A stretch of 32,000 nucleotides of DNA, from positions 6,390,001 to 6,422,000 of the forward strand of contig NZ_LN831039.1 of NCBI RefSeq assembly GCF_001457595.1, given 5' to 3'. This document shows, piece after piece, positions 10,665 to 23,549 of the stretch. Both the position numbers and the translations under genes were made by a program. The notes below the pieces were generated by a model. The model made no database searches. It worked only from the letters and a program-made list of their open reading frames with translations, and was not told the origin of the DNA. Each line of letters opens with the position of its first letter. Within the stretch, counting starts at the first letter, position 1. Source of the stretch: Mycolicibacterium smegmatis. Its GTDB lineage: Bacteria > Actinomycetota > Actinomycetes > Mycobacteriales > Mycobacteriaceae.

Positions 10665-10691
10665 TGGCGGTGGCGGAGGGATTTGAACCCT
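10665..10691. repeat. attL core: 27-bp copy of the tRNA-Ser 3' end (TGGCGGTGGCGGAGGGATTTGAACCCT)
   Basis: Identical to 21302-21328. The flanking bases differ on both sides. Confidence 0.85.
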
Positions 10692-10771
10692 ATTCAGCTA
10701 CCAGGTCAGAGGATCAAAAGCGTCTCTACCTGCATGCCGTCATAACTGGGGATCACCACGGTTACCTGTAA

Positions 10772-10802
10772 CCGTGGGCAAATTGTGGGCAGATTGTGGG
10801 CA
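10772..10802 (+). promoter_or_regulatory. Three 11-bp-phased direct repeats YYGTGGGCA (candidate arm-type integrase binding sites, attL arm)
   Basis: CCGTGGGCA (10772), TTGTGGGCA (10783) and TTGTGGGCA (10794). The same motif with the same phasing occurs at 21213-21243. Confidence 0.45.
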
Positions 10803-10829
10803 CGCGGCGTGTCGTCGACCGCTTGCCGC

Positions 10830-11258
10830 TCATACCCGTTCAGGCGCGCCCGGCTCGTACCGCATGACCACGGCGCGGTCGCGGCGCAGCGATAGCCACC
10901 ACGGGCCGTCGATTGCGGCCTGACGTTCGACGGCCTCCCATCGAGCAGTCAGCCTAACGAGCTGTTCCCAGGCTGGCCTTGTGCCGATGTCGCCGTGCAA
11001 GTGCACGGTTTTGAGCTTGTGTGTGATCGCAAGACTTGCCTCAGTCGGGCGGGTGCGGAGTCGCTTGTCATTGGTGACCACGATCCAACCCCGGTCACCG
11101 ACGACAGGTATCCAATGGGGATCCAAAATCCCGGCGTATAGAAGTTCATCCACTGGCGGGCGACTGAACCGCGCCGTGTCACGCCGCACCGCCACAAGCC
11201 CGTTACCTAGGCGCAGCAGGTTCTCGTCAACGACGTAGGTCACCTGGTCCAGGTCCAT
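10830..11258 (-). CDS. PIN-like / DUF5615-type putative toxin nuclease
   Basis: 142 aa. N-terminal acidic motif 'VVDENL' and 'WIVVTNDKRL', as in PIN-like Mut7-C/DUF5615 proteins. It starts 13 nt downstream of a DUF433-type gene. Confidence 0.5.
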   Translation of the reverse strand: MDLDQVTYVVDENLLRLGNGLVAVRRDTARFSRPPVDELLYAGILDPHWIPVVGDRGWIVVTNDKRLRTRPTEASLAITHKLKTVHLHGDIGTRPAWEQLVRLTARWEAVERQAAIDGPWWLSLRRDRAVVMRYEPGAPERV

Positions 11259-11271
11259 GCCCGTCGCCTGA

Positions 11272-11976
11272 CTACGCAGCCAGCTTGTACTTCTTGACGT
11301 AGTCGATGGCTGCCTGAACCTGCTCCATGCTCAGCCCGTAGTCGGCGGCGAGGTCTTCGTGGCGTTCCCCCGCGTTGGCCATCCCCGCGATTGTGGCCAC
11401 CGATACACGCCTTCCGATAAAGGTCGGCTGCCCGCTGTAGCGGTCGGGGCTGATCACGATCTCGGGGAAGTCACGATCAGGCCGTAGCTCGCTCACGACC
11501 TTCTCGCCCCGTTCGTCCTGCGCCAAGGAAGCGTGCAATATCAGCTCCCTGCCTGAGCCAAATAACAGCTGCTGGCCGGTGCGGACCACCATCTCATCCT
11601 CAGACAGACCGACCTCTTCGCCGCTGATCGTCAGGTCACGGGCATGGACGGCCAGATAGGGACGCAGGTGCGCTAGCGGATAGTCAAGGCCGTAAATACG
11701 GCGCAGCCCGTCGATAGCGGCGCGCAGCCGCGCAGTCGGGATGTTCAGGTTGCGGTACTCGGCGAGAATTCGCGTCTCCACGAACTCGCCCCACGTCGCC
11801 CATTCCGTGTCACGCGGCGCGACACGCAGAATCGGCGGGTAAGCGGTGCCGCTGCGCTGATAGCCGTTGATCCAGCGGCGGGCCGTGCCTGCCGAGAGGC
11901 CGATCAGCCTGTCTACCTCCGCATACAGGTAGACCTCGCGGTCGAGCATCGAGGTAACCGACATGCGCGCAAGCAT
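11272..11976 (-). CDS. HTH (MerR-like) + DUF433-domain protein, putative antitoxin/regulator
   Basis: N-terminal '[24 protein letters not shown]' (HTH). C-terminal '[46 protein letters not shown]' resembles DUF433. The start is uncertain (ATGs at 11976, 11964 and 11949). Confidence 0.55.
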
Positions 11977-12225
11977 GACACAGAGGTATCAGCCGAGACC
12001 GACAAAGATAGACAGAGGCGGACAACCCGCGTGTCAATGAAGCACAGTCACACCCACGTCGCGCCGTATGGGCCTGTGCTTGTCGGCTCCGCGACAAGCG
12101 CGCCGGTTGGGTCGCATGACCACCTCGTTGCACTTGCGAAAGCTGATGGAAACGACTGGCCAGAGAACGCTCTCGGAGGGCGGAGCGCCGTCGGGTAGCG
12201 GGCACGCAGTGCCTCGTCCCAGCGG

Positions 12226-15200
12226 CTACTCCCAGGCCCAATGGGGTACAGCCTCCAACCGCTTCTGTCGATCCCGACTCAGCTTCCCCTGGGCAAAAAA
12301 TCGCCGCTGGACATGAACCCATTGTCCGAGCTTCACGCCATTGACGACTTCCGAGCGGGGAATTCGGTCGGTCTTGTGCTGCTTCACATAGTTGACAAAC
12401 AACGCAAGATTGCCATCCCACACAGCAGCCTTGCTGTCCCATGCCCAGCCAGGCAACGCCTCCAGGCGCTCGCGTCGTTCCGGTGCAATTACGTCAGAGA
12501 CTGCGTCGTGTCGCTGGACACTGACCCATTGTCCGAGTCGTACTCCTTGTTCGACATGCCTCTGCGGCACACGCGCGTGTCCCTCCCGCGCAGTGAACTT
12601 CTCCAGCATCACGAACCTCTCCTCCCAGACATCGTGGGACAGGGTGGTCCAGGTCCACCCCGGCAGCTCCTCAAGCCTGCGCTGACGCGCGGGATCGAGC
12701 CGACCTTTGGCGTAGGTCCCCTTCTGGGTCGCAATCCAAAAACCGAGTCGGACGCCGTCGACGGTGTAACTCTGCGGGACCCGCGAGGTGCCATGTTCGG
12801 CGGTGTACTCCCGAAGGAGCATGAATGCTCGCTCCCATTTTTCGGCGTGCGGGTCCCAGGACCAGCCCGGCAGAGCCTCTAAGCGTCGCGCACGCTCTTC
12901 GCTAAGCGTCCCGGCCCGGTAGAAGTCCCGTTGCTTAGGCACCCATGAACCCAGCGGGTATCCGTCATGGTGATGCCTCGCGGGTACTTGAGCGGTGCCA
13001 TGATGCTCCGTGTAGTCGACAAGTTGGCGGAAACCCTCCTCCCACTTCGAATCGTTCACTGCCCACACCCAACCGGGGAGCGCCTCAAGCCGAGCTGCGT
13101 AGTCGGCGCGCAATTTGCCCTTGTTTTTCAGGGTGCGTTGCTGATTGACCCAGCCACCGATTCGAAAGCCGTCGGAATCCGAGGACTTTGTCGGTGCGCA
13201 GCTCCCATGTGCAGCTGCGTATTCCGCAAGCTTTTGGTAGTTGCCCTCCCACAAGGCATCGTGTATGCCCCATACCCAGCCAGGCAGTGCCTCCAAGCGG
13301 GCGGTCCGGTCCGGTCCTAACCGCCCCCTGGAAAACGACGAGCGCTGCGAGTAGGCCCACTTCCCGAGCTGGTATCCGTCCGCAGGGTCGACATATGTCC
13401 GCACCAATCGTGCCGTGCCGTGCGCCTCGGTGTACGCCTGAAGGCGTCGAAACCCTTCTTCCCAACGTGATTCGCGCGCTTCCCAAGCCCAGCCTGGTAG
13501 TGCCTCCAACCGTGCCTGACGTTCCTTGCTCATCTGGCCGTCGCGGTAGACCGTACGCTGGATGGTGGCCCATTGGCCTAGTTTGTAGCCCTCGGCGGAC
13601 TTGAACTTCTGCGCCACCATGGCGTCACCATGGCGCTGGACGTACTCCTGAAGGTGGCGGAAACCTTGCTCCCACTGGTCTGTGAGAGCGTCCCAAGTCC
13701 AGTCGGGGAATTCCTCAAGAAGGCGAGCACGAGCGGGATCAAGGTCGCCCCTATTGCGGTGGTATCGCTGTTGCGCCACCCACTGCCCAAGTCGGAGTCC
13801 GTCATATTTTTCCAATGCGGCTAATCGCGTATGGCCGTGCTCGGCGACGTACTTTTTCAGTTGCTCATACCAGAAGGGCCACTTGTCATCCCGCGTGCTC
13901 CACGTCCAACCGGGCAGTGCCTCTAACCGCTGTATCCGCTCTGCGGGGAGGCCCCCCTTCTTATATGCGGAACGTTGGGTAGTGACCCATGCGCCGACCT
14001 GAAATCCGTTGACCGTGGCGTCTTTTGAAATGAGAGCAGTACCGCTCTGCGCTACGTAATCTTGAAGCCTGGCGAAGCCTTCCTCCCACAGGTCGTCACG
14101 CGGATTCCACGTCCAACCAGACAGCTCCTCAAGTCGCAGTTGGCGTTCTTGCGATAGTTTCCCACTGTTGCGGTGTGATCTCTGCTTCGTCACCCAGGCC
14201 GCGAGCCTATTGTCGCCATCCAACGACGTGTACGAGGGACGGGCATGACCATGCTCAGCAACATGCTTTGTCAACAGCCCGAACCAGAACTCCCACGGTG
14301 CGGTGGTCGCATCCACCATATGGACCTTGAATGCGTTGACAAATTCTGTGCCCACAGTGGCTGGCACATCGAAGTGAATCTTGCTCGGAAGCCGAGGTTT
14401 GCTTCCCTTGCGTCCCATTTCCCGTCGCAGGGCGTCAAGATGCTCACCGAGTTCGGTGTCATGCGCTCTGAGAGCTTTGATGACATCCCAAACCGGTTTG
14501 AAGGCCGAGGAGTCCAGTGCGGCATCAGCATCTTCGTCGGGGTCGATAAACACAGGGATGACAACGGTGCCAATTGTTTTGGTCTCGGACTTTCGAATCG
14601 CGCGACCTACAGCCTGCACGATGTCCACCTCGGAGCGCCGCGGGTCGATGAAGGCCACGCCGTCGAGACTGGGCACATCAACGCCCTCGGCCAAACAGCG
14701 GGCATTGGCAAGCAGGCCGCGCTCACCGTCACCGAGTCTCTTCAGATGCTGGAGCAGGACATGGCGTTCGCCCGCCGACATCTCCCCCGAGGCGTGCTGG
14801 GACCACAAGCTACCTCTAGGGCGTTGCCGGGCAGGCATCCACTCCAGCACGCCGGGCATCGACTCAGCGAACTTTCTGGCCGCCCTGACGCGGCTGTGGA
14901 AGCTGATCAACCGACGCAGATCGTACTTGCGCATCGCCTTGGCCAAGCCGATTTGCCCCGCCAGTGAACGAGCATCCGTAGGCGTCTCGTCACTCAGCCT
15001 GACAGGTAGACCGCGTTTAGCCCAATCGCGGTAGGTCGCGTCATCGACACCGATGATTGCCACCTGATAATCAGTGAGTAGCTTGCGTTCGATGGCCTCC
15101 GCAAAGCTCAGCCGATGAAACACGTTCCCGAATTTGATCTGGTCGTCCATCGACGCGACCTCGTAGTCCGCCTCTTGAGCCTGGCGAAGTATGCGCCCGG

Positions 15201-16239
15201 TGAAGTAGCGCGGCGTCGCCGTCATGAATAGCCGCCGCTTCGCCCTGATCGCCTTGGGGTTGAGCACGGTGCCGAAGTCGGAGGACACCGGCCCAGCGAC
15301 TCGGTGTGCCTCGTCGGCGATCACTAGATCGAACTGGGGCACCCGGCCCAACTTGAAAGCGGCGGCGATCTGGGGTGAGGACTGGTAGGTGGCGAAGACG
15401 ACGCGTGGCCCCGACCGCTTCCGCAGAAACGCCGCGATAACTTCCGGGTCAGTGTCCGCTGGCTCTCCGAGATAGCTGGTGTGGGAAATCGCTGCGTCCT
15501 CGTCAAGCGCGACGGTCTCATCACTGCACACCGGCAGCGCATCGAAAGGACGTTTGATGTTGGCGGTTCGCCACTCCTTCATCGTCTGCTTCAGCAGCGA
15601 TAGTGATGGCACCAAGACGAGGGTGCGTGTGGCGGCCAATTCCTCTTTGATGAACCACGCCGTCAGGGTCTTGCCGGTGCCGCACGCCATGATCAGCTGC
15701 CCACGATCAGCGGTCTTGAACCCCTCGATCACGTCCCTGATCGCGTCCTGTTGGTAATCGTGTGGCTCGCGCGGCTCGGGCACTCTGGCTGGACGCAGGT
15801 CTGTCAGCTTGGCTGGCCACTCGGTGAAGTCCTCTAGTTCTGTCAGACCGATGAAGGTGACCCCGAGGTCCTCCATCGTGCGCTGTGCGGTTGGAGACAA
15901 CTTGTCGGTCGTCGCCATCAGCATTCGGTAAGCGAAGTCGAACCGGCCCGCTTCCGCGAGGAACTTGTTCACCTCGGTTCTGGTCACCGTGTTCTCGTAT
16001 GCTTTGGCCTGAATAGCCCACAGCCGGCCTTCGGTGTCTTCCGCAACGAGGTCGATGCCAGCATCGATACCCCAGTTACCTGGCCAGTCCTTCCACAACC
16101 ACACCCGACGCAGCAACTGCTTGTATTGGCCTGTGTCGTTTTCGAGGAACCATTTGCAGACGATCTCGAACTGATCGCCCTTCCTCTTCCGGTTGACCGG
16201 GTCGAACTGTGCCTTGAGATCGCTGAACGTCCCCCCCAT
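12226..16239 (-). CDS. Mrr-like PD-(D/E)xK nuclease + SF2 (ResIII/DEAH) helicase + 10 tandem helicase-associated (HA) domains
   Basis: ATG at 16239; the ORF-track 5' extension is Arg/Pro-rich and was rejected. Nuclease motif 'GIDLVAEDTEGRLWAIQAKAY'. Helicase motifs are I 'ACGTGKT', II 'VIADEAHRV', III 'MTATPR' and VI 'QAVGRAIR'. These are followed by 10 repeats of ~69 aa ending in 'RLEALPGWxW'. Confidence 0.85.
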   Translation of the reverse strand: MGGTFSDLKAQFDPVNRKRKGDQFEIVCKWFLENDTGQYKQLLRRVWLWKDWPGNWGIDAGIDLVAEDTEGRLWAIQAKAYENTVTRTEVNKFLAEAGRFDFAYRMLMATTDKLSPTAQRTMEDLGVTFIGLTELEDFTEWPAKLTDLRPARVPEPREPHDYQQDAIRDVIEGFKTADRGQLIMACGTGKTLTAWFIKEELAATRTLVLVPSLSLLKQTMKEWRTANIKRPFDALPVCSDETVALDEDAAISHTSYLGEPADTDPEVIAAFLRKRSGPRVVFATYQSSPQIAAAFKLGRVPQFDLVIADEAHRVAGPVSSDFGTVLNPKAIRAKRRLFMTATPRYFTGRILRQAQEADYEVASMDDQIKFGNVFHRLSFAEAIERKLLTDYQVAIIGVDDATYRDWAKRGLPVRLSDETPTDARSLAGQIGLAKAMRKYDLRRLISFHSRVRAARKFAESMPGVLEWMPARQRPRGSLWSQHASGEMSAGERHVLLQHLKRLGDGERGLLANARCLAEGVDVPSLDGVAFIDPRRSEVDIVQAVGRAIRKSETKTIGTVVIPVFIDPDEDADAALDSSAFKPVWDVIKALRAHDTELGEHLDALRREMGRKGSKPRLPSKIHFDVPATVGTEFVNAFKVHMVDATTAPWEFWFGLLTKHVAEHGHARPSYTSLDGDNRLAAWVTKQRSHRNSGKLSQERQLRLEELSGWTWNPRDDLWEEGFARLQDYVAQSGTALISKDATVNGFQVGAWVTTQRSAYKKGGLPAERIQRLEALPGWTWSTRDDKWPFWYEQLKKYVAEHGHTRLAALEKYDGLRLGQWVAQQRYHRNRGDLDPARARLLEEFPDWTWDALTDQWEQGFRHLQEYVQRHGDAMVAQKFKSAEGYKLGQWATIQRTVYRDGQMSKERQARLEALPGWAWEARESRWEEGFRRLQAYTEAHGTARLVRTYVDPADGYQLGKWAYSQRSSFSRGRLGPDRTARLEALPGWVWGIHDALWEGNYQKLAEYAAAHGSCAPTKSSDSDGFRIGGWVNQQRTLKNKGKLRADYAARLEALPGWVWAVNDSKWEEGFRQLVDYTEHHGTAQVPARHHHDGYPLGSWVPKQRDFYRAGTLSEERARRLEALPGWSWDPHAEKWERAFMLLREYTAEHGTSRVPQSYTVDGVRLGFWIATQKGTYAKGRLDPARQRRLEELPGWTWTTLSHDVWEERFVMLEKFTAREGHARVPQRHVEQGVRLGQWVSVQRHDAVSDVIAPERRERLEALPGWAWDSKAAVWDGNLALFVNYVKQHKTDRIPRSEVVNGVKLGQWVHVQRRFFAQGKLSRDRQKRLEAVPHWAWE
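12229..14295 (-). repeat. Coding tandem array: 10 HA-domain repeats (65-71 aa each, 689 aa total)
   Basis: I counted the repeats in the translated ORF. The consensus is W-E-x-x-F-x-x-L-x-x-Y-x-x-x-H-G ... G-x-x-L-G-x-W-V-x-x-Q-R ... R-x-x-R-L-E-A-L-P-G-W-x-W. Confidence 0.8.
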
Positions 16240-16454
16240 GGGGACGAGATTAGACGCGAAAACCGCAGACTTGTCCGAAAGGGAAGCCAGCGCGCAGCGC
16301 GCCCGCGACTCGATGGCGGGGGGAGGAGGTCTCCCCCGGGGCAAATGTCGGCTACAGGCACCGCTGCCCGCCGTTGGCGGGTGACCACGACGGGCAGCGG
16401 CACCACTGTCCCGGAGGGTTGGAGTAGCCGGTTGGCGACACCTCCGGGCAGGTC

Positions 16455-17318
16455 TTAGCTTCCCTCCATGCCGACGCGCACGACGGCCTGCTGATGGGGG
16501 AACCCGATGCCGACGCGCAGCACGCAGCGGATGCCCGTGCGGTCGCTGGAGAACGCGAACGAGCTGTCGGCGATCACCTCGGCGTCCTGCCGGATCACGA
16601 CGAAGCACTTGTCCCGGGGGATGAGCCACATTGCGCCAGCGGTGACGGCGGGCGAGCTGTACAGCGGCACGCCGAGCACGCTGCGGCCCGTGGCTCGCGT
16701 CGCGTCAGGTCCAAGTAGCGGCTGGTTGCTGTCGGCCGTGACTTTGCTTGTCGCCACGGCCAGGACATCGGTCGGGCTGCCGACCAAGGCCATGTTGGAC
16801 AAGCCGTCCACGACGTTGGTGGCGAGCACGCCGACGTTCTCGGCGAGGCTGACTGCCTCGGCGAACACGTCCAAGCTGCCGTCAAAGGTGAGCGTGGTCT
16901 CCTGCACGTTGGTCAAGCTTTCGACACCGTCCGGGCCGTTGGCCACGCTGTCACCGAAATAGGCCGCGTCCAGCTTGATGCGGAGGTCTCTCACCAGACC
17001 CTCACCGACCACCTGCAACGCGCTCGGATCGGAGTCGGCCAGGAGTTCGTTGGAGACCACAACGAGCGACTTGAGGCCGGCCGGAGTAACGACCAGCTCT
17101 TCCAAATCCGGGTCAGTGACCGGGATTTCCTGTCCTTCCGCTACCCAATTGTTCTGTGCGTCAGTGACAACGATGGGAAACCTTGTGCTGTGCGAAGCGG
17201 TCTCCACGACGGTGGAGACCTGCGTGGCGACAGACGCGCGGATGAGCGGCTGCACAACGAGGTCTTGGACATCTTGGGGCGCCAGTATGGCCGCGCCGTT
17301 AGCGGTGAGCAAGGGCAT
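16455..17318 (-). CDS. Phage major capsid protein, HK97-fold family
   Basis: 287 aa. It has the typical 'LKSLVVVSNELLADS' block, 'DAAYFGD' and a C-terminal region like Phage_capsid family members. RBS GGAGG lies 6 nt upstream of the ATG at 17318. Confidence 0.75.
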   Translation of the reverse strand: MPLLTANGAAILAPQDVQDLVVQPLIRASVATQVSTVVETASHSTRFPIVVTDAQNNWVAEGQEIPVTDPDLEELVVTPAGLKSLVVVSNELLADSDPSALQVVGEGLVRDLRIKLDAAYFGDSVANGPDGVESLTNVQETTLTFDGSLDVFAEAVSLAENVGVLATNVVDGLSNMALVGSPTDVLAVATSKVTADSNQPLLGPDATRATGRSVLGVPLYSSPAVTAGAMWLIPRDKCFVVIRQDAEVIADSSFAFSSDRTGIRCVLRVGIGFPHQQAVVRVGMEGS

Positions 17319-17447
17319 GAATGCCTCCGAAGGTGAGCGTGGTCTGATGTGACTTGCCCGGTGACCGCAGATCAGGCCGGGATGCCCTCGGGGCGTACGT
17401 GCAGCGGATGCGGGCCACGGGCCGGAACACCAACCGCGACAGCCAGT

Positions 17448-17948
17448 CTAGCGGCCTTTGAGTGCCTTACTCCAGGACGCTTTACCGGGCGGCTGTCCGC
17501 TGCCAGTGCCTTGCTGCCGGTTCGGTTGGGGCGGTCGGCCCTTGGGTGGCACGCGGAACTCTCGTGCGGTGGCTGTGACGGCCTCGGACAACTTGGTGCC
17601 GTCGATCAAACCGTCGTCACCGACGAGGCTGTCTACGGTGTGCCCGGCTGCTGTGAGTAAGCGCGGGTCTAGACCTGCTGCCTGCACAGCGTTCTCCACG
17701 ATGGCCGCGCGGGTGCGTTGCAGGGTGTCGCGCAGCTCGTCCAGCTCGCGGCGCGCCTCGTTGCGCTCGCGCCGATACCTGGCCTCCCGGTTCGCCCTGC
17801 CGCCCTCGTCCTGATTTTGCGTCGTCTCGTCAAGTTCGCTCGTCGGCGTATGGTCGTCATCGGTGCCGGTCGGTGCGTTTTCGCCGGCCGTGTGGCTGTC
17901 GGGCGGATTGTCTTGTCGTGCCGGCGTTTTCGTGTCAGAGATGGTCAT
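17448..17948 (-). CDS. Putative capsid scaffolding protein
   Basis: It lies immediately upstream of the capsid gene. It has a charged coiled-coil-like core 'REARYRRERNEARRELDELRDTLQRTRAAI' with low-complexity ends. The ATG at 17948 has GGAGGA upstream and an ATGA overlap with the preceding ORF. Confidence 0.5.
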   Translation of the reverse strand: MTISDTKTPARQDNPPDSHTAGENAPTGTDDDHTPTSELDETTQNQDEGGRANREARYRRERNEARRELDELRDTLQRTRAAIVENAVQAAGLDPRLLTAAGHTVDSLVGDDGLIDGTKLSEAVTATAREFRVPPKGRPPQPNRQQGTGSGQPPGKASWSKALKGR

Positions 17949-18247
17949 GGGTTTTGTTCCTCCAGGGTTGGCCATGTTCTGCGGCGGACGCCGTTGGACA
18001 GCCATTCCACGACGGTCGTCAGGTCGTCGGGCACCGTGTAGCCGATATGGCGCAGTAGTGCACGTTCGGTGGGCGTGGCGGGCCGCGTTCGGGTCACGCT
18101 GGCGCGGTAGTGCCGGTTCTCGTAGTCGGCATATGCCGTGGCATCCTCGGCACGCTGCACGGCGTCGGGCAAGTGAGCCAACACTAGTAGGCCGCGTCGG
18201 TGGTCGGGTCTGTGCTCGCCGACGCCGGTCAAGTCAATTTCGGTCAT
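17945..18247 (-). CDS. Hypothetical protein (element operon)
   Basis: 100 aa with ATGA overlaps at both ends (18244-18247 and 17945-17948). I recognised no motif. Confidence 0.45.
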   Translation of the reverse strand: MTEIDLTGVGEHRPDHRRGLLVLAHLPDAVQRAEDATAYADYENRHYRASVTRTRPATPTERALLRHIGYTVPDDLTTVVEWLSNGVRRRTWPTLEEQNP

Positions 18248-18666
18248 GGCAGAGCCTCCGCTACGGCTCGGTCTAGGTCGTCTTGCTGGTGATCGTGAAC
18301 CGCAACTTCTGGATGAAGCTGGACATCTCGACGAACTCCCCGGAGTTCATGGTCTGCAACTACTACCGCATGTTCGTCACGATCTTCTAGTTCTGCGCGT
18401 ACACCACCTCGGAACTCGCCCGCGACCACGCCGACAAGATCAGGCTCAGAGTCAGCCCACCGGCCACACTCGGCCTTAGCGGGACAACGGCGACACACGG
18501 CAATGCACTCGGCAATCCGAATCCGGCTGCCGCGCTCAGCCTCATGGAAACGGCCACGCACGCCGACACACGCGGCACCGTCCAAGCGCGGCACCCCGGT
18601 CAGCACAACGGCAAGTAGACCGACCACGCCCGACGCCGGGACGCGGGCCGGGTGAACACGGCTCAC
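18244..18666 (-). CDS. WhiB-like (Wbl) Fe-S transcription factor with acidic/His-rich C-terminal extension
   Basis: Four-Cys pattern C-x24-C-x2-C-x5-C in 'AACVG...VCRRCPAKAECGRWA', followed by 'GVVAGE' in place of the GxWGG turn. Its 5' end shares 18663-18666 with the end of the upstream ORF; the start is uncertain. Confidence 0.6.
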   Translation of the reverse strand: MSRVHPARVPASGVVGLLAVVLTGVPRLDGAACVGVRGRFHEAERGSRIRIAECIAVCRRCPAKAECGRWADSEPDLVGVVAGEFRGGVRAELEDRDEHAVVVADHELRGVRRDVQLHPEVAVHDHQQDDLDRAVAEALP

Positions 18667-19151
18667 GGTGCGCCCTCCAGCCCGTGACGCCGACGCAACA
18701 CCGCGAACAGCGCGCCGCTTTGGTCTCCGGCGAGATAGGCGACGACGTGCCCGGCGATGACAGCGGCGGCGTGCGCGATGTCCAGGTCTGCGAACTCGGC
18801 CATGCTCATCAGCTCGTTACAGCGTCCGATGGCACCGCGTTCGTACGCCTCGGCTAGGGCGATGGCGGCAAGGCTGAGGCGTGCTTGCTCGTCGGGTGCG
18901 CCGGTCGCGGTGGCCAGCGCGTGCACATCGGCGCGCAACTTGTCGAAGCGTACGGCGGCGTCGGGACCGGCCAACAAACCGGCCAGCGTGCGCACGGCGG
19001 CGATACGCAGCCACGCCGATTCACTTGCGGAGTCGGCCATGACGTTCGACGCTGCGTCAGCGAGGCCGTTGGCAGCAAGCTCAGCGGCACGGACGACAAC
19101 GGCGAACACTGCGGCCGGTGCCTCGTCGTCCCATCCCGGCTCAGTCCTCAT
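18663..19151 (-). CDS. Hypothetical Ala-rich protein (element operon)
   Basis: 162 aa. Its ends share 4 nt with each neighbouring ORF (19148-19151 and 18663-18666). No motif recognised. Confidence 0.45.
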   Translation of the reverse strand: MRTEPGWDDEAPAAVFAVVVRAAELAANGLADAASNVMADSASESAWLRIAAVRTLAGLLAGPDAAVRFDKLRADVHALATATGAPDEQARLSLAAIALAEAYERGAIGRCNELMSMAEFADLDIAHAAAVIAGHVVAYLAGDQSGALFAVLRRRHGLEGAP

Positions 19152-19693
19152 GCGTACTCCTCAAAGGGATTCGGTCCAGCGCCGCGCCACTTCGGCAACT
19201 CGGTGAGCGACGGAGGACCGTGCAAACCGGCAGCCGTTGGTACCCGCTCCCCTTCATTGCCTGCCTTCCTTCCTTCCTGTGCTGTCCCCGGGGACGCTTC
19301 CCCGGGACTGTCCCCGTCGTCATCCCCGGGACTGTCCTCGTCGTCGGCACCCCCCGCCAACTTCTCAGCGCGCTGCTTGGCCTTCTTCACCCGCTCCCGC
19401 TGCCGAATCCTCTCCAAGGTCTCCAGCTCGCTGCGGGCGGTCTGGGTGGCCGCGTAGTCGGTGATCAACCAGCCGTCCGACTGCGGGGTGAACAGTCCGG
19501 CGTCCACGAACGCCTTAGCGGCGTTGGCCGACCAATGCGGGATGAGTCCAACGTCCTCGCGTTCGATCCGGCCATCGGTGCGGTTGGTGACCGACCACAG
19601 CAGCGCGTTGACGAACGTCCTGTAGTGCTCGGCTGAGAGCCGTTGCAGGCGGCGGTCATTCAACCACCGTTCCGGAATTCGGGCGTCGGTCAC
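19148..19693 (-). CDS. Hypothetical protein with acidic low-complexity C-terminal half (possible DNA-binding / replication-organiser role, unproven)
   Basis: GTG at 19693 lies 4 nt after the Xis-like stop. The N-terminal ~100 aa are globular ('WLNDRRLQRLSAEHYRTFVNALLWSV'). A coiled-coil-like basic stretch and a D/E/G/P-rich tail follow. Confidence 0.45.
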   Translation of the reverse strand: MTDARIPERWLNDRRLQRLSAEHYRTFVNALLWSVTNRTDGRIEREDVGLIPHWSANAAKAFVDAGLFTPQSDGWLITDYAATQTARSELETLERIRQRERVKKAKQRAEKLAGGADDEDSPGDDDGDSPGEASPGTAQEGRKAGNEGERVPTAAGLHGPPSLTELPKWRGAGPNPFEEYA

Positions 19694-19697
19694 GGTG

Positions 19698-19901
19698 TCA
19701 GCGGCCCGCGTTCTGCACGTTGGCGGCGATGAACTCGTCCAGATCGGCGAGTCTGTAGCGGACGCTGCGGCCGATTCGCACGTACTTCGGGCCTTCACCC
19801 AAGTAGCGCATATTCGCCAAGCGCGCGGGGGTAGTGCTCAGGTACTCGGCGGCCTGGTCAGTTTTGATCAGCCCTGAGATTCGTTCTTCAGCCACGATCA
19901 C
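19698..19901 (-). CDS. Excisionase / AlpA-like helix-turn-helix protein
   Basis: 'TDQAAEYLSTTPARLANMRYLGEGPKYVRIGRSVRYRLADLDEFI' is the typical Xis/MerR-superfamily HTH_17 layout. The start is uncertain (GTG at 19901 or 19895; the ORF-track start at 19991 is a TTG). Confidence 0.6.
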   Translation of the reverse strand: MIVAEERISGLIKTDQAAEYLSTTPARLANMRYLGEGPKYVRIGRSVRYRLADLDEFIAANVQNAGR

Positions 19902-20065
19902 CAGCGTAATACCGAGCGTGGCACGCTTCCCGTGAGAGACGTTGCGCACGAACAGTTTTCGGCGCCTTCGTAGGTTGACAGTTGCTGACAATGGCTGCCA
20001 GAGATACGACAGACGCTGACAGCGAATCCGAGTGCGGCGACAGCGAAATTGGTTCGGCGTGTTGC

Positions 20066-21181
20066 TCAGTTCGGCGTGTCGCGCACTACCTCCGGGTCCG
20101 TCTTGTGCCCGCCACGCGCACGATCCAGCGCGGCCGCAACGTCGTCAAGGTCGGCGTCGAACAGGTCGGCGTAGGTGTCCAGCGTGACCTTGGCGGACTT
20201 GTGGCCAAGCATCCGCTGAAGCGCCAACACGTTCACGCCTGCCGAGACAGCCAGCGACGCGCAGGTGTGGCGGAGATCGTGCGGAGTGACGGCCTGCACC
20301 CCGGCGCGCTTCACGGCGGCAGCGAACCATCCCCCGTCCGACTTCGGGCGTGGCAGATACCCGTCACCGGCCGCGCTGAACACCAGATCGTTGGGAGTCT
20401 TGCCCGCGCACAGCACCGACAGCTCATCAAGTACGAACGCCGGAACCGGCACCGACCGCGCCGTACGGCCCTTGGTCGGCCCTACAGCGTGTTCTACGCC
20501 GAGCTGCACGGCGTTCTCGTGGATCGACAGCCGACGCCGCAGGAACTCCACGTCACGCACGCGCAGCGCGACAGCCTCACCCCACCGGATGCCCGTGTAG
20601 GCCAGCGTGAGCACCAGCGCGCGATGCTGGCCGCACTCGTCGGCCAGCCGCGCCACGTCGTCGGCTGACAAGTAGACGTGGCGGCGCGCCGTCTTACGCG
20701 GCAGATTGCCGACACCCTTGGCCGGGTTGGCCACCAACCGCCTGCCCTTCACGGCGTCGGCCAGGATGCCCGACAGGACGCCGTGCGCGCGCAGCACCGT
20801 GGTCGAACCCGCGCCACCGCGCACCATGCCGGTGATCCACGCCTCTACGCCGAGCTGGTCAATATCAGCGACGGTCGCCGACGCCCATCGCGGGGCGACG
20901 TGGACCCGCCACGCTGACTCCAGCATCCGGTAGTGAGAACGCGCGGTCGCGTGTTCCTTACGCGCCAACCAGTCGGCCGACAGCTCGCCCACCGTCACCC
21001 GTCCGAGCGACGGGGCGACGTACTCGCCGCGCATCTTGGAGACCTCCACCTCGGCGGCGAACGCCTCGGCCTCCCGCTTGGTCTTGAATCCGCGCCGGTC
21101 GGTCTGTCGGCGGTCGGGGGTGCGGTAGCGCACGCGGTACCGCTTGCCGTGCGCCGTCTGGTACTGGACAACCTGAGCCAT
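20066..21181 (-). CDS. int: Tyrosine recombinase (phage integrase family)
   Basis: ATG at 21181 ('MAQVVQYQTAHGKRYRVRYR', an arm-binding-type N-terminus). The C-terminal catalytic signature is 'TPHDLRHTCASL...LGHKSAKVTLDTYADL' (H-x-x-R ... H ... Y). It is adjacent to the tRNA. Confidence 0.9.
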   Translation of the reverse strand: MAQVVQYQTAHGKRYRVRYRTPDRRQTDRRGFKTKREAEAFAAEVEVSKMRGEYVAPSLGRVTVGELSADWLARKEHATARSHYRMLESAWRVHVAPRWASATVADIDQLGVEAWITGMVRGGAGSTTVLRAHGVLSGILADAVKGRRLVANPAKGVGNLPRKTARRHVYLSADDVARLADECGQHRALVLTLAYTGIRWGEAVALRVRDVEFLRRRLSIHENAVQLGVEHAVGPTKGRTARSVPVPAFVLDELSVLCAGKTPNDLVFSAAGDGYLPRPKSDGGWFAAAVKRAGVQAVTPHDLRHTCASLAVSAGVNVLALQRMLGHKSAKVTLDTYADLFDADLDDVAAALDRARGGHKTDPEVVRDTPN

Positions 21182-21212
21182 GCGCCGCACGGTACTCACG
21201 AAGCGCGACAAG

Positions 21213-21243
21213 TTGTGGGCAAAATGTGGGCAAACCGTGGTCG
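21213..21243 (+). promoter_or_regulatory. 11-bp-phased direct repeats TTGTGGGCA / ATGTGGGCA / CCGTGGTCG (candidate arm-type integrase sites, attR arm)
   Basis: Read directly. Motif, orientation and phasing match 10772-10802. The third copy is degenerate. Confidence 0.4.
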
Positions 21244-21301
21244 GACGGCTTGCCAGCAAACGCAAAAACCGCCCTTACCTGCGCTGGCAGGCGGGCGGCT
21301 T

Positions 21302-21328
21302 TGGCGGTGGCGGAGGGATTTGAACCCT
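21302..21328. repeat. attR core: 27-bp repeat forming the 3' end of the intact tRNA-Ser
   Basis: Identical to 10665-10691. Confidence 0.85.
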
Positions 21329-21392
21329 CGGTGGGGGGTTACCCCACACACGCTTTCGAGGCGTGCTCCTTAGGCCGCTCGGACACGCCACC
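21302..21392 (-). tRNA. tRNA-Ser (anticodon CGA), 91 nt with encoded CCA
   Basis: I folded the reverse complement by hand: acceptor GGTGGCG/CGCCACC, anticodon arm CACGC-CTCGAAA-GCGTG (CGA), long variable arm TGTGGGGTAACCCCCCAC, T-arm GAGGG-TTCAAAT-CCCTC, discriminator G, CCA. Confidence 0.9.
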
Positions 21393-21485
21393 GCGCAGTA
21401 GCTTACCGGGAGAGCGCCGGAGGCCATAATCGCGCTGCTCATCACGGTGATCACCGAGCGTGCGGCCACGGCGGAAAAATGGCCC

Positions 21486-21541
21486 GCAACCCGCCAAGAG
21501 TGCACACTCGATCGAGCAACCCGCCAAGAGTGCACACTCGA
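21486..21541. repeat. Two tandem copies (30-bp period) of GCAACCCGCCAAGAGTGCACACTCGA
   Basis: The 26-nt copies at 21486-21511 and 21516-21541 are identical. Each contains the near-palindrome GAGTG-CA-CACTC. The repeat lies between the tadA stop and the tRNA-Ser 5' side. Confidence 0.7.
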
Positions 21542-21552
21542 CCACACGAAAC

Positions 21553-22002
21553 TCAGCGCTGGCGCGCGAAGAACTCCTCGAGCAGAGCCGCGCACTCGTC
21601 GGCGAGCACGCCGCCGATCACCTCGGGCCGGTGGTTGAGCCTGCGGTCACGCACGACATCCCACAGTGAGCCGACCGCGCCGGTCTTCGGCTCCCACGCT
21701 CCGAACACCAGCCGCGACACACGCGCCAGGACCAGCGCGCCTGCACACATCGTGCACGGTTCCACGGTCACGGCCAGCGTGGCGCCCTCCAGGCGCCAGC
21801 CGTCACCGAGGACCTTGGCCGCCGCGCGCATCGCCACGATCTCGGCATGCCCGGCCGGGTCGCCGTAGGCTTCACGGACGTTGACCGCCCGCGCGAGTTC
21901 GGTGCCGTCGGCCGCGTAGACCACGGCCCCGATGGGCACATCGCGCGGTCCTGCGGTGCGGGCGGCCTCCAGCGCCGCACGGATCTGGGATTCCGGGGTC
22001 AC
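21553..22002 (-). CDS. tadA: tRNA-specific adenosine deaminase
   Basis: CDA zinc motifs 'HAEIVAMR' (H-A-E) and 'PCTMCAGAL' (P-C-x-x-C). 149 aa. The GTG start overlaps the upstream stop (GTGA). Confidence 0.9.
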   Translation of the reverse strand: MTPESQIRAALEAARTAGPRDVPIGAVVYAADGTELARAVNVREAYGDPAGHAEIVAMRAAAKVLGDGWRLEGATLAVTVEPCTMCAGALVLARVSRLVFGAWEPKTGAVGSLWDVVRDRRLNHRPEVIGGVLADECAALLEEFFARQR

Positions 22003-22505
22003 CGATTGAGGCGGTCCAGCACTGCCGACAGTTCCTCGGCGAACCCCATCTCGCGCGCGATCCGGCCGATCTGCTCGTCGGCGTACAGATCCGTCTCGTC
22101 GAGGATCACGCTGAGCACCGCGTCGGGCAGTCCGAGATCCGACAGCAGGCCCAGATCGCCCTCTTCGAAGGGGTCGGCGTCGTCGAGATCATCGGCCTCG
22201 ATGTCGGCGTCGAGCTTCTCGAGTGCCTCGGCGGCGATGTCGTAGTCCAGCGCCGCGGTGGCATCCGACAGCAGCAGTCGGGTGCCCGCCGGCGCCGGGC
22301 GCACGATCACGAAGAACTCGTCGTCGACATCGAGCAGGCCGAACACGGCACCCGCGCTGCGGATCTCACGCAGCTCGGTCTCGGCCGCGGACAGGCTGTT
22401 GAGCGCGCTCTTGCGCATGGGCGCGCATCGCCACTTGCCGTCCTCGCGGACAACGGCCACGCCGAAACCATCGGGCAGGTCTGCCGGCGCTCGCTGTGCT
22501 CCCAT
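21999..22505 (-). CDS. Acidic conserved protein, tRNA adenosine deaminase-associated (Rv3753c-like by position)
   Basis: 168 aa, translationally coupled to tadA. The family assignment comes from recalled synteny, not from a motif. Confidence 0.5.
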   Translation of the reverse strand: MGAQRAPADLPDGFGVAVVREDGKWRCAPMRKSALNSLSAAETELREIRSAGAVFGLLDVDDEFFVIVRPAPAGTRLLLSDATAALDYDIAAEALEKLDADIEADDLDDADPFEEGDLGLLSDLGLPDAVLSVILDETDLYADEQIGRIAREMGFAEELSAVLDRLNR

Positions 22506-22571
22506 GAGCGCCTACGGTAGTCGCCGACCAGCGATTTTGACCAGGGATCTCCCAGCCGCCGCGATGGGAGC

Positions 22572-23549
22572 GTGTGCCAACCTTGTGGGGTGACAACTAC
22601 TCCCGTGTGCGTGCTGGGTCTCGGCTTGATCGGTGGCTCGGTGATGCGCGCCGCCGCCGCGGCGGGTCGGGAAGTTTTTGGCTACAACCGGTCGGTCGAG
22701 GCCGTGCAGGCCGCCACGTTCGACGGGTTCGACGCCACCGCGAACCTCGACAAGGCGCTGGCCAGGGCCGCTGCCGACGATGCGCTGATCGTTCTGGCCG
22801 TGCCGATGCCCGCGCTCGGGCTCATGCTGGGCCACATCCGTGCCGCGGCAGCGAACTGTGCGTTGACCGACGTGATCAGCGTCAAGGGCGCGGTGCTGCG
22901 GGAGGTCGAGAAGTACGGCCTGCTCGAGAGGTTCGTGGGCGGCCACCCCATGGCAGGCACGGCGCACTCGGGATGGGCCGCGGGCAGCGTCGACCTGTTC
23001 GTCGGCGCGCCGTGGGTGGTGTCGGTCGACGATCACGTCGACGCGGGCGTGTGGACCCAGGTCGCGCAGCTTGCGCTGGACTGCCACGCAGTCGTGGTGC
23101 CCGCCCGCTCCGACGAGCACGACGCTGCCGCAGCGGCCATCTCGCATCTGCCGCATCTGTTCGCCGAGACGATGGCCGAGATCGCCGGCGAGGTCCCGCT
23201 GGCCTACGCGCTGGCCGCGGGCTCGTTCCGGGACGGCACGCGGGTCGCGGGCTCGGCGCCTGATCTGGTGCGCGCGATGTGCGAGGCCAACGCCGCGCAG
23301 CTGCTGCCGGCACTGGATCGCGGCATCGAGCTGCTGACCCGGGCCAGAGCTGCGCTCGCGGATACGGGTTCGGTGGCCGAGCTCGTGGAATCGGGCCACG
23401 CCGCGCGGATGCGCTACGACAGCTTCGCGCGGCCCGACATCATCGCGACCGTGGTGGGCGATGAGAACTGGCGTGACGAACTCGCGGCCGCCGGGCGGGC
23501 CGGCGGGGTGATCAGATCCGCTCTGCCAGTCCTGGGTAGTCGAGGATGA
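22572..23549 (+). CDS. tyrA: Prephenate dehydrogenase
   Basis: Rossmann motif '[12 protein letters not shown]' and 'FVGGHPMAG' (PDH catalytic His region). The start is either GTG 22572 or GTG 22590. Confidence 0.8.

Follow-up and report, generated by a model that had tools for sequence, protein, structure and literature searches.

Satellites in which an integrase is combined with a capsid gene are already known from mycobacteria. Among them are the Extracellular Prophage-Inducing Particles (EPIPs), 11-kb satellites isolated on Mycolicibacterium aichiense, for which HerbertWM is the helper prophage (Qian et al., bioRxiv Dec 2025, PMC12822802), whose particles have smaller heads (~32-51 nm) and long tails and co-occur with HerbertWM (PMC12822802). 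Furthermore, SatelliteFinder has predicted phage-inducible chromosomal islands (PICIs) in Mycobacterium, of phiRv1/2-like and other types (de Sousa et al., NAR 2023, PMC10085698), and Mycobacterium 'candidate PICIs' have been delineated by an integrase occurring together with a major capsid protein (Abad et al., mSystems 2023, PMC10654092), some of these having tyrosine integrases at tRNA genes as well as replication, terminase and scaffold genes, with mobilisation untested (PMC10654092). Here we describe an insert in the chromosome of Mycolicibacterium smegmatis (contig NZ_LN831039.1), found in a stretch of 32,000 nucleotides (positions 6,390,001 to 6,422,000, henceforth the window, to which coordinates refer unless a locus is named), that carries adjoining capsid and scaffold genes and is notable as a minimal, terminase-free form of such an element resident in M. 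smegmatis. A first-pass annotation of the same DNA had held that satellite families of this sort were not known in mycobacteria, but this notion is outdated in view of the above reports from 2023 (PMC10085698, PMC10654092) and 2025 (PMC12822802).

The insert measures 10,664 bp (10665-21328) and is delimited by an exact 27-bp direct repeat, recovered by a repeat search of the window, whose two copies (10665-10691 and 21302-21328) are spaced by 10,637 bp. Just inside both ends lies a pair of TTGTGGGCA repeats, which is the layout expected for arm-type integrase sites, and the pairs may putatively serve as such; the nonamer at 21224 has one mismatch, and exact copies are found nowhere else in the window beyond the two end pairs. 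All genes of the element are on the minus strand, in the order tyrosine integrase, HTH_17 excisionase, replication initiator-like gene, o162, WhiB-like gene, o100, scaffold, capsid, Mrr-helicase-HA gene, DUF433 gene and PIN_10 gene (Table 1), and the GC content is 0.58-0.65 within the element as against 0.67-0.70 in the flanks. The window as a whole has the character of GC-rich DNA of Actinomycetota. Database comparison finds the exact locus also in CP082846.1, and the proteins of the window are identical to annotated proteins of M. smegmatis isolates, the capsid for instance to CKI51601.1 (among others), with UAK58456.1 being near-identical. Accessions of the MSMEG type are not among the matches, although this does not prove that strain mc2 155 lacks the element. 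We consider it probable, if well short of certain, that the insert is an intact integrative phage satellite, belonging to the mycobacterial 'candidate PICIs' of Abad et al. and distantly related to the EPIPs, with a dependence on a helper phage that we infer.

The assignment of the capsid gene is straightforward. Its 287-residue product, proposed in the first-pass annotation to be an HK97-type major capsid protein, matches essentially the full Pfam profile PF05065 (Phage_capsid; positions 3-277 of 280, E 7.4e-23, 81.8 bits against a cut-off of 24.2) and TIGR01554 (major_cap_HK97; positions 111-382 of 385, E 1e-21, 77.6 bits against a cut-off of 27.5), in both cases above the curated cut-offs, and it also matches phrog_10, major head protein. 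The possibility that the protein has an unrelated fold, which had been set beforehand as a test of the proposal, is thereby settled by the family profiles in favour of a capsid. Since the TIGR01554 match is confined to positions 111-382, the protein corresponds to the mature HK97 domain without the N-terminal delta domain, and this agrees with the presence of a separate scaffolding protein. The gene for the latter is started at 17948 by public gene calls, so that it codes for 166 residues and overlaps the stop of the preceding gene by 4 nt. Taken alone the window protein has a weak, sub-threshold match to phrog_8865 (E 0.058), while 18 of the 46 homologues that occupy the same position by the capsid (our family A2) match phrog_4708, head scaffolding protein, with a best E of 4.4e-9. 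In the family alignment the N-terminus is acidic but variable, whereas a charged helical stretch (REAAKYRxQLRExExERDxL) and an SW motif at the C-terminus are conserved; a profile of the family gave chance coiled-coil matches only when compared with the sequences of the PDB. The product of 17448-17948 is predicted to be a member of a head-scaffolding family, which bears out the scaffold-like gene that had been placed directly before the capsid, and the segment 16455-17948 comprises exactly the capsid and scaffold genes.

Both proteins can be linked to those of the EPIPs, which are deposited as twelve ~11-kb 'Mycolicibacterium phages' (OR387110-OR387121) and whose capsid is 26% identical to that of the window. 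By hhalign, the window's capsid family aligns with the capsid of EPIP Alyssa1 (probability 99.9, E 4e-33) and the scaffold family with the product of the neighbouring gene directly upstream (probability 98.9, E 2.2e-17), a gene that is unnamed in the GenBank record, the preprint listing an EPIP scaffolding protein (PMC12822802). The EPIP capsid furthermore matches all of the 80 relatives described below by BLASTP, with up to 39% identity. This homology of scaffold and capsid to the EPIP pair places the module of the window in a lineage for which helper-dependent particle formation has been reported. The likeness extends to size (~10.6 kb as compared with 10.9-11.1 kb), to the position of the scaffold gene directly upstream of a delta-less HK97 capsid, to the host family, and to the fact that neither encodes a portal, large terminase, protease or tail-tube genes. 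However, the genes of EPIPs include those for a small terminase subunit (TerS), a stopper, a head-to-tail adaptor, a serine integrase and a tape-measure-like protein, all of which the window element lacks, its integrase at tRNA-Ser being a tyrosine recombinase; moreover, o100 and o162 are without EPIP counterpart, and EPIPs were isolated as free particles while the window element is known as an integrated copy only.

The first-pass annotation had found no portal, terminase, protease or tail gene in the element, and this picture is upheld by a PHROG scan of all 79 element open reading frames (ORFs) of at least 50 residues in six frames, which matched only integrase, helicase, major head protein, replication initiator, WhiB and excisionase families and returned no portal, terminase, protease, connector, tail or lysis gene. 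Scans of the element with Pfam, NCBIfam and PADLOC likewise revealed no further virion genes, no TerS, HNH or Rpp-like match is present in any frame of the element, and tblastn with the gene clusters of relatives (HNH, TerS, primase) detected no remnant in the window. The Mrr-helicase-HA protein is, as had been noted, the sole product of more than 400 residues, and there is no other ORF of portal or large terminase subunit (TerL) size. Cryptic portal, terminase or head-completion functions were also looked for in o100 and o162. AlphaFold 2 models of o162 (pLDDT 92, seven helices) and o100 (pLDDT 84) were compared by Foldseek with the PDB and, for o100, also BFVD, and nothing below E 0.4 was found, the best matches having E 0.4-2; the Pfam, PHROG, PADLOC and NCBIfam scans gave no family match for o162. 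Since these confident models are without a Foldseek match, neither protein is a recognisable TerS, connector, protease or portal fragment. When 1.84 billion representatives were searched with a profile of o100, 271 clusters were returned, all of stand-alone proteins of ~100 residues, with no informative fusions among them.

Comparison with phage genomes likewise gave little. The scaffold, o100 and o162 yielded zero matches by tblastn against 50,697 phage records, and the phage-database relatives of the capsid are the EPIPs (26% identity) and distant Firmicutes phages only; no mycobacteriophage capsid in the database is similar at E <= 1e-3, the EPIPs apart. The search for capsid relatives, suggested in the first-pass annotation as a way of nominating helper phages, has in other words led to the EPIPs OR387110-OR387121 but not to a helper, and none can be nominated by homology since scaffold, o100 and o162 are unmatched in the 50,697 phage genomes.

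How then does the element compare with other satellites? It conforms exactly to the definition of Abad et al. (integrase, att and capsid), but the candidate PICIs are a bioinformatic and heterogeneous category, of which the window element is a specific sub-type devoid of any terminase component; the locus was not found in a portion of Data Set S4 of that study (PMC10654092). By the criteria of SatelliteFinder and Penades, the element has the integrase and site-specific att of a PICI, and a capsid and scaffold where a packaging-hijack gene (TerS, Rpp or Ppi) or a capsid-size redirection gene would be called for. phiRv1 and phiRv2 of M. tuberculosis, compared by gene content from the literature, are likewise integrative elements of ~10 kb that possess an HK97-type capsid gene together with integrase, excisionase and replication genes while portal and tail are missing, yet differ in that the window element has a separate scaffold and is without protease and terminase. 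For phiRv1 the literature gives a terminase (Rv1578c), a prohead protease (Rv1577c) and a serine integrase, in agreement with the statement in the first-pass annotation that these elements encode terminase and protease. The cos-type Staphylococcus aureus pathogenicity islands (SaPIs) exemplified by SaPIbov5 (Carpena 2016; Hawkins et al.) are similar as TerS-less satellites with an HK97-fold capsid homologue, Ccm, but belong to a different host phylum and have no sequence relationship to the window element. SaPIbov5 is packaged by the helper's own terminase with small capsids as the result (Hawkins et al., Nat Commun 2021, PMC8569155), and Ccm has a delta domain and no separate scaffold, provides the pentamers only, the hexamers being helper capsid, and cannot form capsids alone (PMC8569155). 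The dedicated scaffold of the window element and the lack of a similar mycobacteriophage capsid suggest that, unlike in the Ccm system, the whole shell is made by the satellite. Capsid-forming PICIs (cfPICIs) likewise bring their own capsid protein and steal tails, but they encode portal, protease, head-tail connectors, HNH, TerS and TerL, none of which is found here. P4, finally, is ~11 kb, resides at a tRNA gene and has a cos site on which the helper terminase acts. The window element resembles P4-like satellites in size and tRNA-gene integration, but P4 uses the helper capsid protein and an external scaffold, Sid, and no Sid, Psu, Delta or alpha-primase homologue was found in any scan of the element. 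Being without portal, protease, connectors and terminases, the window element is neither a cfPICI, nor an EPIP in the strict sense, nor phiRv-like. The satellite logic put forward in the first-pass annotation is supported in so far as the comparative evidence favours helper dependence, but not as regards a likeness to cfPICIs, since portal, protease, connectors and both terminase subunits are missing.

The capsid has hundreds of homologues, and 80 genomic loci were retrieved from one-per-species genomes and analysed by home-made gene calling and clustering (loci and clusters are below given by their L and c numbers). They span Mycobacterium, Mycolicibacterium, Nocardia, Rhodococcus, Microbacterium, Brevibacterium, Corynebacterium, Actinomyces, Pseudonocardia and others, and have a recurring layout of integrase (often with a divergent repressor), HTH excisionase, replication gene, one to three small genes, scaffold and capsid. 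The replication proteins of relatives are of 350-900 residues and belong to AAA_25, D5_N primase-helicase or Toprim/DUF3631 types, and o100 was recognised upstream of the scaffold in 24 of the 80 loci (BLAST homologues are found in 25 loci when the window's own is included). A flanking direct repeat is present in 50 of the 80 (L003-L081), about 35 of the repeats being at least 23 bp long and in many cases tRNA 3' ends; with a single exception these ~35 are spaced by 8.0-10.7 kb, the spacing being ~8.2-8.7 kb for the Microbacterium and Brevibacterium loci and 9.5-10.7 kb for those of Mycobacterium and Nocardia. Element sizes thus look quantised and constrained, for which a packaging limit would be the obvious cause, and the relatives are compact elements and not prophages.

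After the capsid, an HNH endonuclease, a TerS-like small protein or both are encoded at about one tenth of the 80 loci, the small protein clustering with the annotated EPIP Alyssa1 terminase or matching TerS PHROGs, and a few relatives show adaptor, protease or tape-measure matches. As to the last of these, three post-capsid genes match phrog_305, tail length tape measure protein, strongly (best E 1e-186; L001 8355-10310, members of family A6), and at least two of the matches are from genomic relatives, since the scan also took in the gene that is annotated as tape measure in EPIP Alyssa1. Separately, six loci (L027, L036, L038, L044, L046 and L056), from Microbacterium, Brevibacterium, Brachybacterium and one metagenome-assembled genome, have a large-terminase-like gene (weak Pfam matches to Terminase_6N/Terminase_6C) and a small gene just upstream of scaffold and capsid; the gene lies at ~7.4-9.5 kb in locus coordinates, and these elements are of 8.2-9.5 kb with no obvious portal. 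Among IMG/VR contigs, L100 and L119 (capsid ~32% identical) have terminal overlaps of 123-127 bp that imply circular genomes of ~10.1-10.2 kb, and many other IMG/VR matches are likewise contigs of 9-11 kb. L100 and L119 were considered as evidence for excised forms and rejected on account of the ~32% capsid identity and different gene layout.

The nearest relatives form a group of their own. An element of M. phlei has a capsid that is 97% identical and occupies the same tRNA-Ser site, and its DNA is 89% identical to that of the window from the tRNA to position 16292, some 160 bp beyond the capsid stop, after which homology returns in the last 150 bp; this distal end is ~80% conserved in both the M. 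phlei and L004 elements despite different cargo. An element of M. obuense (L085) has a capsid of 87% identity and retains the block of o162, WhiB, o100, scaffold and capsid, combined with a serine integrase, another insertion site, an AAA_25 replication gene and other cargo. This element appears to split a Tad-locus T2SSE ATPase gene (L085 3650-4240 and 14636-15256), which implies integration within a protein-coding gene rather than a tRNA. Two metagenomic contigs with capsids of 74% and 66% identity have the same core and again different cargo, and over these four relatives the core is found with varying integrases, att sites and cargo. Neither HNH nor TerS is present in the M. phlei, M. obuense or two metagenomic relatives, and since all of these as well as the window element are terminase-free, this is a stable configuration of the sub-clade and not a one-off deletion. 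Pairwise ratios of nonsynonymous to synonymous substitution rates (dN/dS) are 0.14-0.33 for the capsid, 0.22-0.37 for the scaffold, 0.05-0.21 for o100 and 0.24-0.31 for o162, and the overall range of 0.05-0.37 is indicative of purifying selection and argues against decay.

The stretch between the end of core homology and the distal attachment arm (10692-16292) is, as judged from gene content, a cargo slot with exchangeable contents. In the window it is filled by the Mrr-helicase-HA gene, which has a GC content of 0.58-0.62 compared with 0.67-0.70 in the flanks and is unique to the window element among the relatives, and by the DUF433 and PIN_10 genes, which are absent from all relatives compared. 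The type IIG REase_MTase model of PADLOC is matched in its nuclease-helicase part by residues 17-600 of the Mrr-helicase-HA protein (E 8.6e-133), as are type I models, which makes the protein a candidate restriction-like defence factor; its ten HA repeats are visible in the DNA as a 207-bp periodicity at 12230-14150 (direct-repeat families D1-D6). Slot contents elsewhere are unrelated, consisting of an NYN nuclease, a DNA methyltransferase and an M78 peptidase in M. phlei (L084 11027-16212), HTH_31 and methyltransferase genes in M. obuense (L085 10974-14600), and pentapeptide-repeat and SDH-protease genes in L144.

Table 1. Features of the M. smegmatis element and its attachment site (window coordinates)
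Feature	Coordinates	Strand	Basis and remarks
HK97-fold major capsid protein, 287 aa, no delta domain	16455..17318	-	PF05065, TIGR01554, phrog_10
Predicted head scaffolding protein, 166 aa	17448..17948 (ORF extendable to 18005)	-	family phrog_4708 matches; position upstream of capsid
Two-hairpin non-coding element directly 3' of capsid stop	16357..16451	-	GC-rich; loop motif GGCTACTCC
Attachment (att) core repeat, integrase-distal end	10665..10691	.	TGGCGGTGGCGGAGGGATTTGAACCCT; exact 27-bp direct copy of 21302-21328
tRNA-Ser(CGA)	21302..21392	-	ARAGORN; Rfam tRNA 53 bits; 3' 27 nt (21302-21328) are the integrase-proximal att core
Two TTGTGGGCA repeats, 11 bp apart, putative arm-type integrase-binding sites	10783..10802	+	
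Second pair of TTGTGGGCA-type repeats, adjoining integrase start	21213..21232	+	
Tyrosine integrase, 371 aa, arm-DNA-binding domain	20066..21181	-	PF00589 E 3.4e-20; PF14657; phrog_1 E 6e-68
Excisionase/AlpA-type HTH_17 protein	19698..19949	-	PF12728 E 1.5e-9; phrog_66 excisionase and transcriptional regulator
Putative replication initiator, 181 aa by public call	19148..19693 (ORF to 19798)	-	phrog_2447 E 9e-11; phrog_3926 E 1.4e-9
o162, all-alpha, 162 aa, near-clade only	18663..19151	-	no family match
WhiB-like transcription factor, true start probably internal	18244..18666	-	PF02467 E 2.6e-5; phrog_472 E 5e-10
o100, conserved 100-aa protein, always just upstream of scaffold	17945..18247	-	no family match
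Mrr-type nuclease + ResIII/DEAD helicase + 10 HA repeats, ~1337 aa	12226..16239	-	Pfam Mrr_cat_2, ResIII, Helicase_C, HA x10
HTH + DUF433 protein, 234 aa, probable PIN partner	11272..11976	-	PF04255 DUF433 E 5e-14
PIN-like protein, 142 aa, probable toxin of DUF433/PIN pair	10830..11258	-	PF18478 PIN_10 E 1.2e-11

Directly after the capsid gene a two-hairpin element is found, which is the sole conserved non-coding feature that we found and just beyond which core homology with the M. phlei element stops at 16292. The RNA is predicted to fold with -69.4 kcal/mol (z -3.9), and the hairpins are kept in 7 of 9 near-clade elements, where the stem sequences differ while complementarity is retained and the GGCTACTCC loop is conserved. 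No Rfam family is matched, the hits to mir-3937 and snoRNAs being sub-threshold noise, and a consensus promoter/terminator scan gave nothing informative. The hairpins may be no more than a terminator, but they are also the best, if speculative, candidate for a packaging (cos/pac) site.

From these observations a life cycle as a helper-dependent satellite can be outlined. Integrase and excisionase would excise the element from tRNA-Ser, as the intact att core and the arm-type repeats at both ends suggest, and the small initiator protein, known by its PHROG matches, may then replicate it. The delta-less capsid, the scaffold and o100 would build a small shell suited to ~10 kb, in keeping with the family size of 8-10.7 kb and the small EPIP capsids. 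Since none of them is encoded by the element, a helper, presumably a siphophage, must supply the portal, both terminase subunits, the head-completion proteins, the tail and the lysis functions, and the shell would be assembled on the helper-supplied portal, filled by the helper terminase and joined to helper tails. Because the sub-clade is without the HNH/TerS pair of some relatives, packaging specificity would have to reside in a cis site that is read by the helper terminase, as in P4 or SaPIbov5, and the hairpins are the only, speculative, candidate for it. It is tentatively conceivable, although we would not put it higher, that the TerS-less sub-clade (M. smegmatis, M. phlei, M. obuense and the metagenomic elements) represents a distinct kind of hijacking, in which the satellite makes the shell only (capsid, scaffold and o100) on a stolen helper portal and relies on the unmodified helper terminase and a structured post-capsid cis element, and that it belongs to a size-quantised family (8-10.7 kb) over much of Actinomycetota with a capsid lineage private to satellites.

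Several points weigh against the notion of a helper-dependent satellite. No helper has been identified, and the element has no TerS, Rpp/Ppi-like factor, connector or recognisable master repressor, for which reason induction and packaging are wholly matters of inference. Experimental precedent comes from one preprint, whose elements do have a TerS, an adaptor, a stopper and a tape-measure-like gene, and the hairpins may instead be a transcription terminator or an mRNA-stabilising 3' structure. Stand-alone contigs of ~10 kb (L144, L145 and many others) were considered as excised or packaged forms and rejected, as de Bruijn assemblers break at att repeats.

The absence of TerS, portal and connector would also be accounted for if the element were an interference or defence island, in which capsid and scaffold are decoys that poison phage capsid assembly and which spreads by way of integrase events and generalised transduction or other routes. 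The defence-like cargo in the variable slot, here and in relatives, is compatible with this, and SaPIbov5 Ccm shows that a satellite capsid homologue can mainly interfere with helper assembly (PMC8569155). A decoy would however have no need of its own scaffold, the size of 8-10.7 kb across distant hosts would be left unexplained, the homologous EPIP module is associated with small-headed particles that carry the element (PMC12822802), and no mycobacteriophage capsid is similar enough (E <= 1e-3) to suggest co-assembly, all of which leads us to regard such an island as unlikely. We hold it to be of similarly low probability that the element does encode a packaging-specificity factor, in an unrecognised fold of o162, o100 or the HTH_17 protein, and is a conventional island of PICI or EPIP type that redirects the helper large terminase. 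Admittedly, o162 and o100 are conserved and under purifying selection, and the TerS-like gene shown by roughly one tenth of the 80 relatives implies that the lineage uses TerS redirection, but the confident models of o100 and o162 match no TerS or other solved structure, and o100 occurs alongside the c10 TerS-like gene in L003, L005 and L007 and is therefore no replacement for it. Decay of a prophage that has lost portal, terminase and tail and is no longer mobile, a possibility named in the first-pass annotation and seemingly favoured by the presence of just 2 of ~20 virion genes and the lack of a known helper, is very improbable in view of the exact 27-bp att repeat and the arm repeats at both ends, the intact state of all core genes, whose dN/dS is far below 1, the recurrence of one compact architecture and size in dozens of genera, the exchange of cargo and integrase modules around a constant core, and the fact that tblastn detects no fragment of the other genes of relatives. 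Conserved synteny, tight size, purifying selection and EPIP homology, as read from sequence comparison, thus favour a helper-dependent satellite over a decayed prophage.

The remaining core genes deserve brief mention. The initiator-like protein is of 181-216 residues, has PHROG matches only and no primase or helicase domain, and its gene fills the slot that is held in relatives by AAA_25, D5_N or Toprim/DUF3631 primase-helicases. L085 and L145 have called homologues of the WhiB-like gene. A divergent cI/Stl-like repressor was not found beside the integrase, whereas many relatives have one (cluster c3). Outside the element and just upstream of tRNA-Ser, two exact copies of a 26-bp repeat (GCAACCCGCCAAGAGTGCACACTCGA) lie 30 bp apart at 21486-21541. 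The M. tuberculosis locus that is syntenic with the flank at 21400-23000 (Rv3752c/Rv3753c-like) has as its tRNA-Ser neighbour what we take to be an excisionase and an integrase fragment (Rv3750c/Rv3751), and if this is right the same attB has presumably been used in the M. tuberculosis lineage also.

M. smegmatis is the standard host for the isolation of mycobacteriophages, of which very large collections exist. An intact satellite in this species would be a tractable model for mycobacterial satellite-helper biology, which to date is represented by one preprint on M. aichiense. As a near-minimal satellite that makes its own capsid, it would furthermore show which parts of a phage head can be stolen, such as portal, terminase and connectors, and which have to be matched to genome size, such as shell and scaffold. 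Finally, given their defence-like cargo, elements of this kind may shape the phage susceptibility of their hosts, which is of relevance to phage therapy of non-tuberculous mycobacteria.

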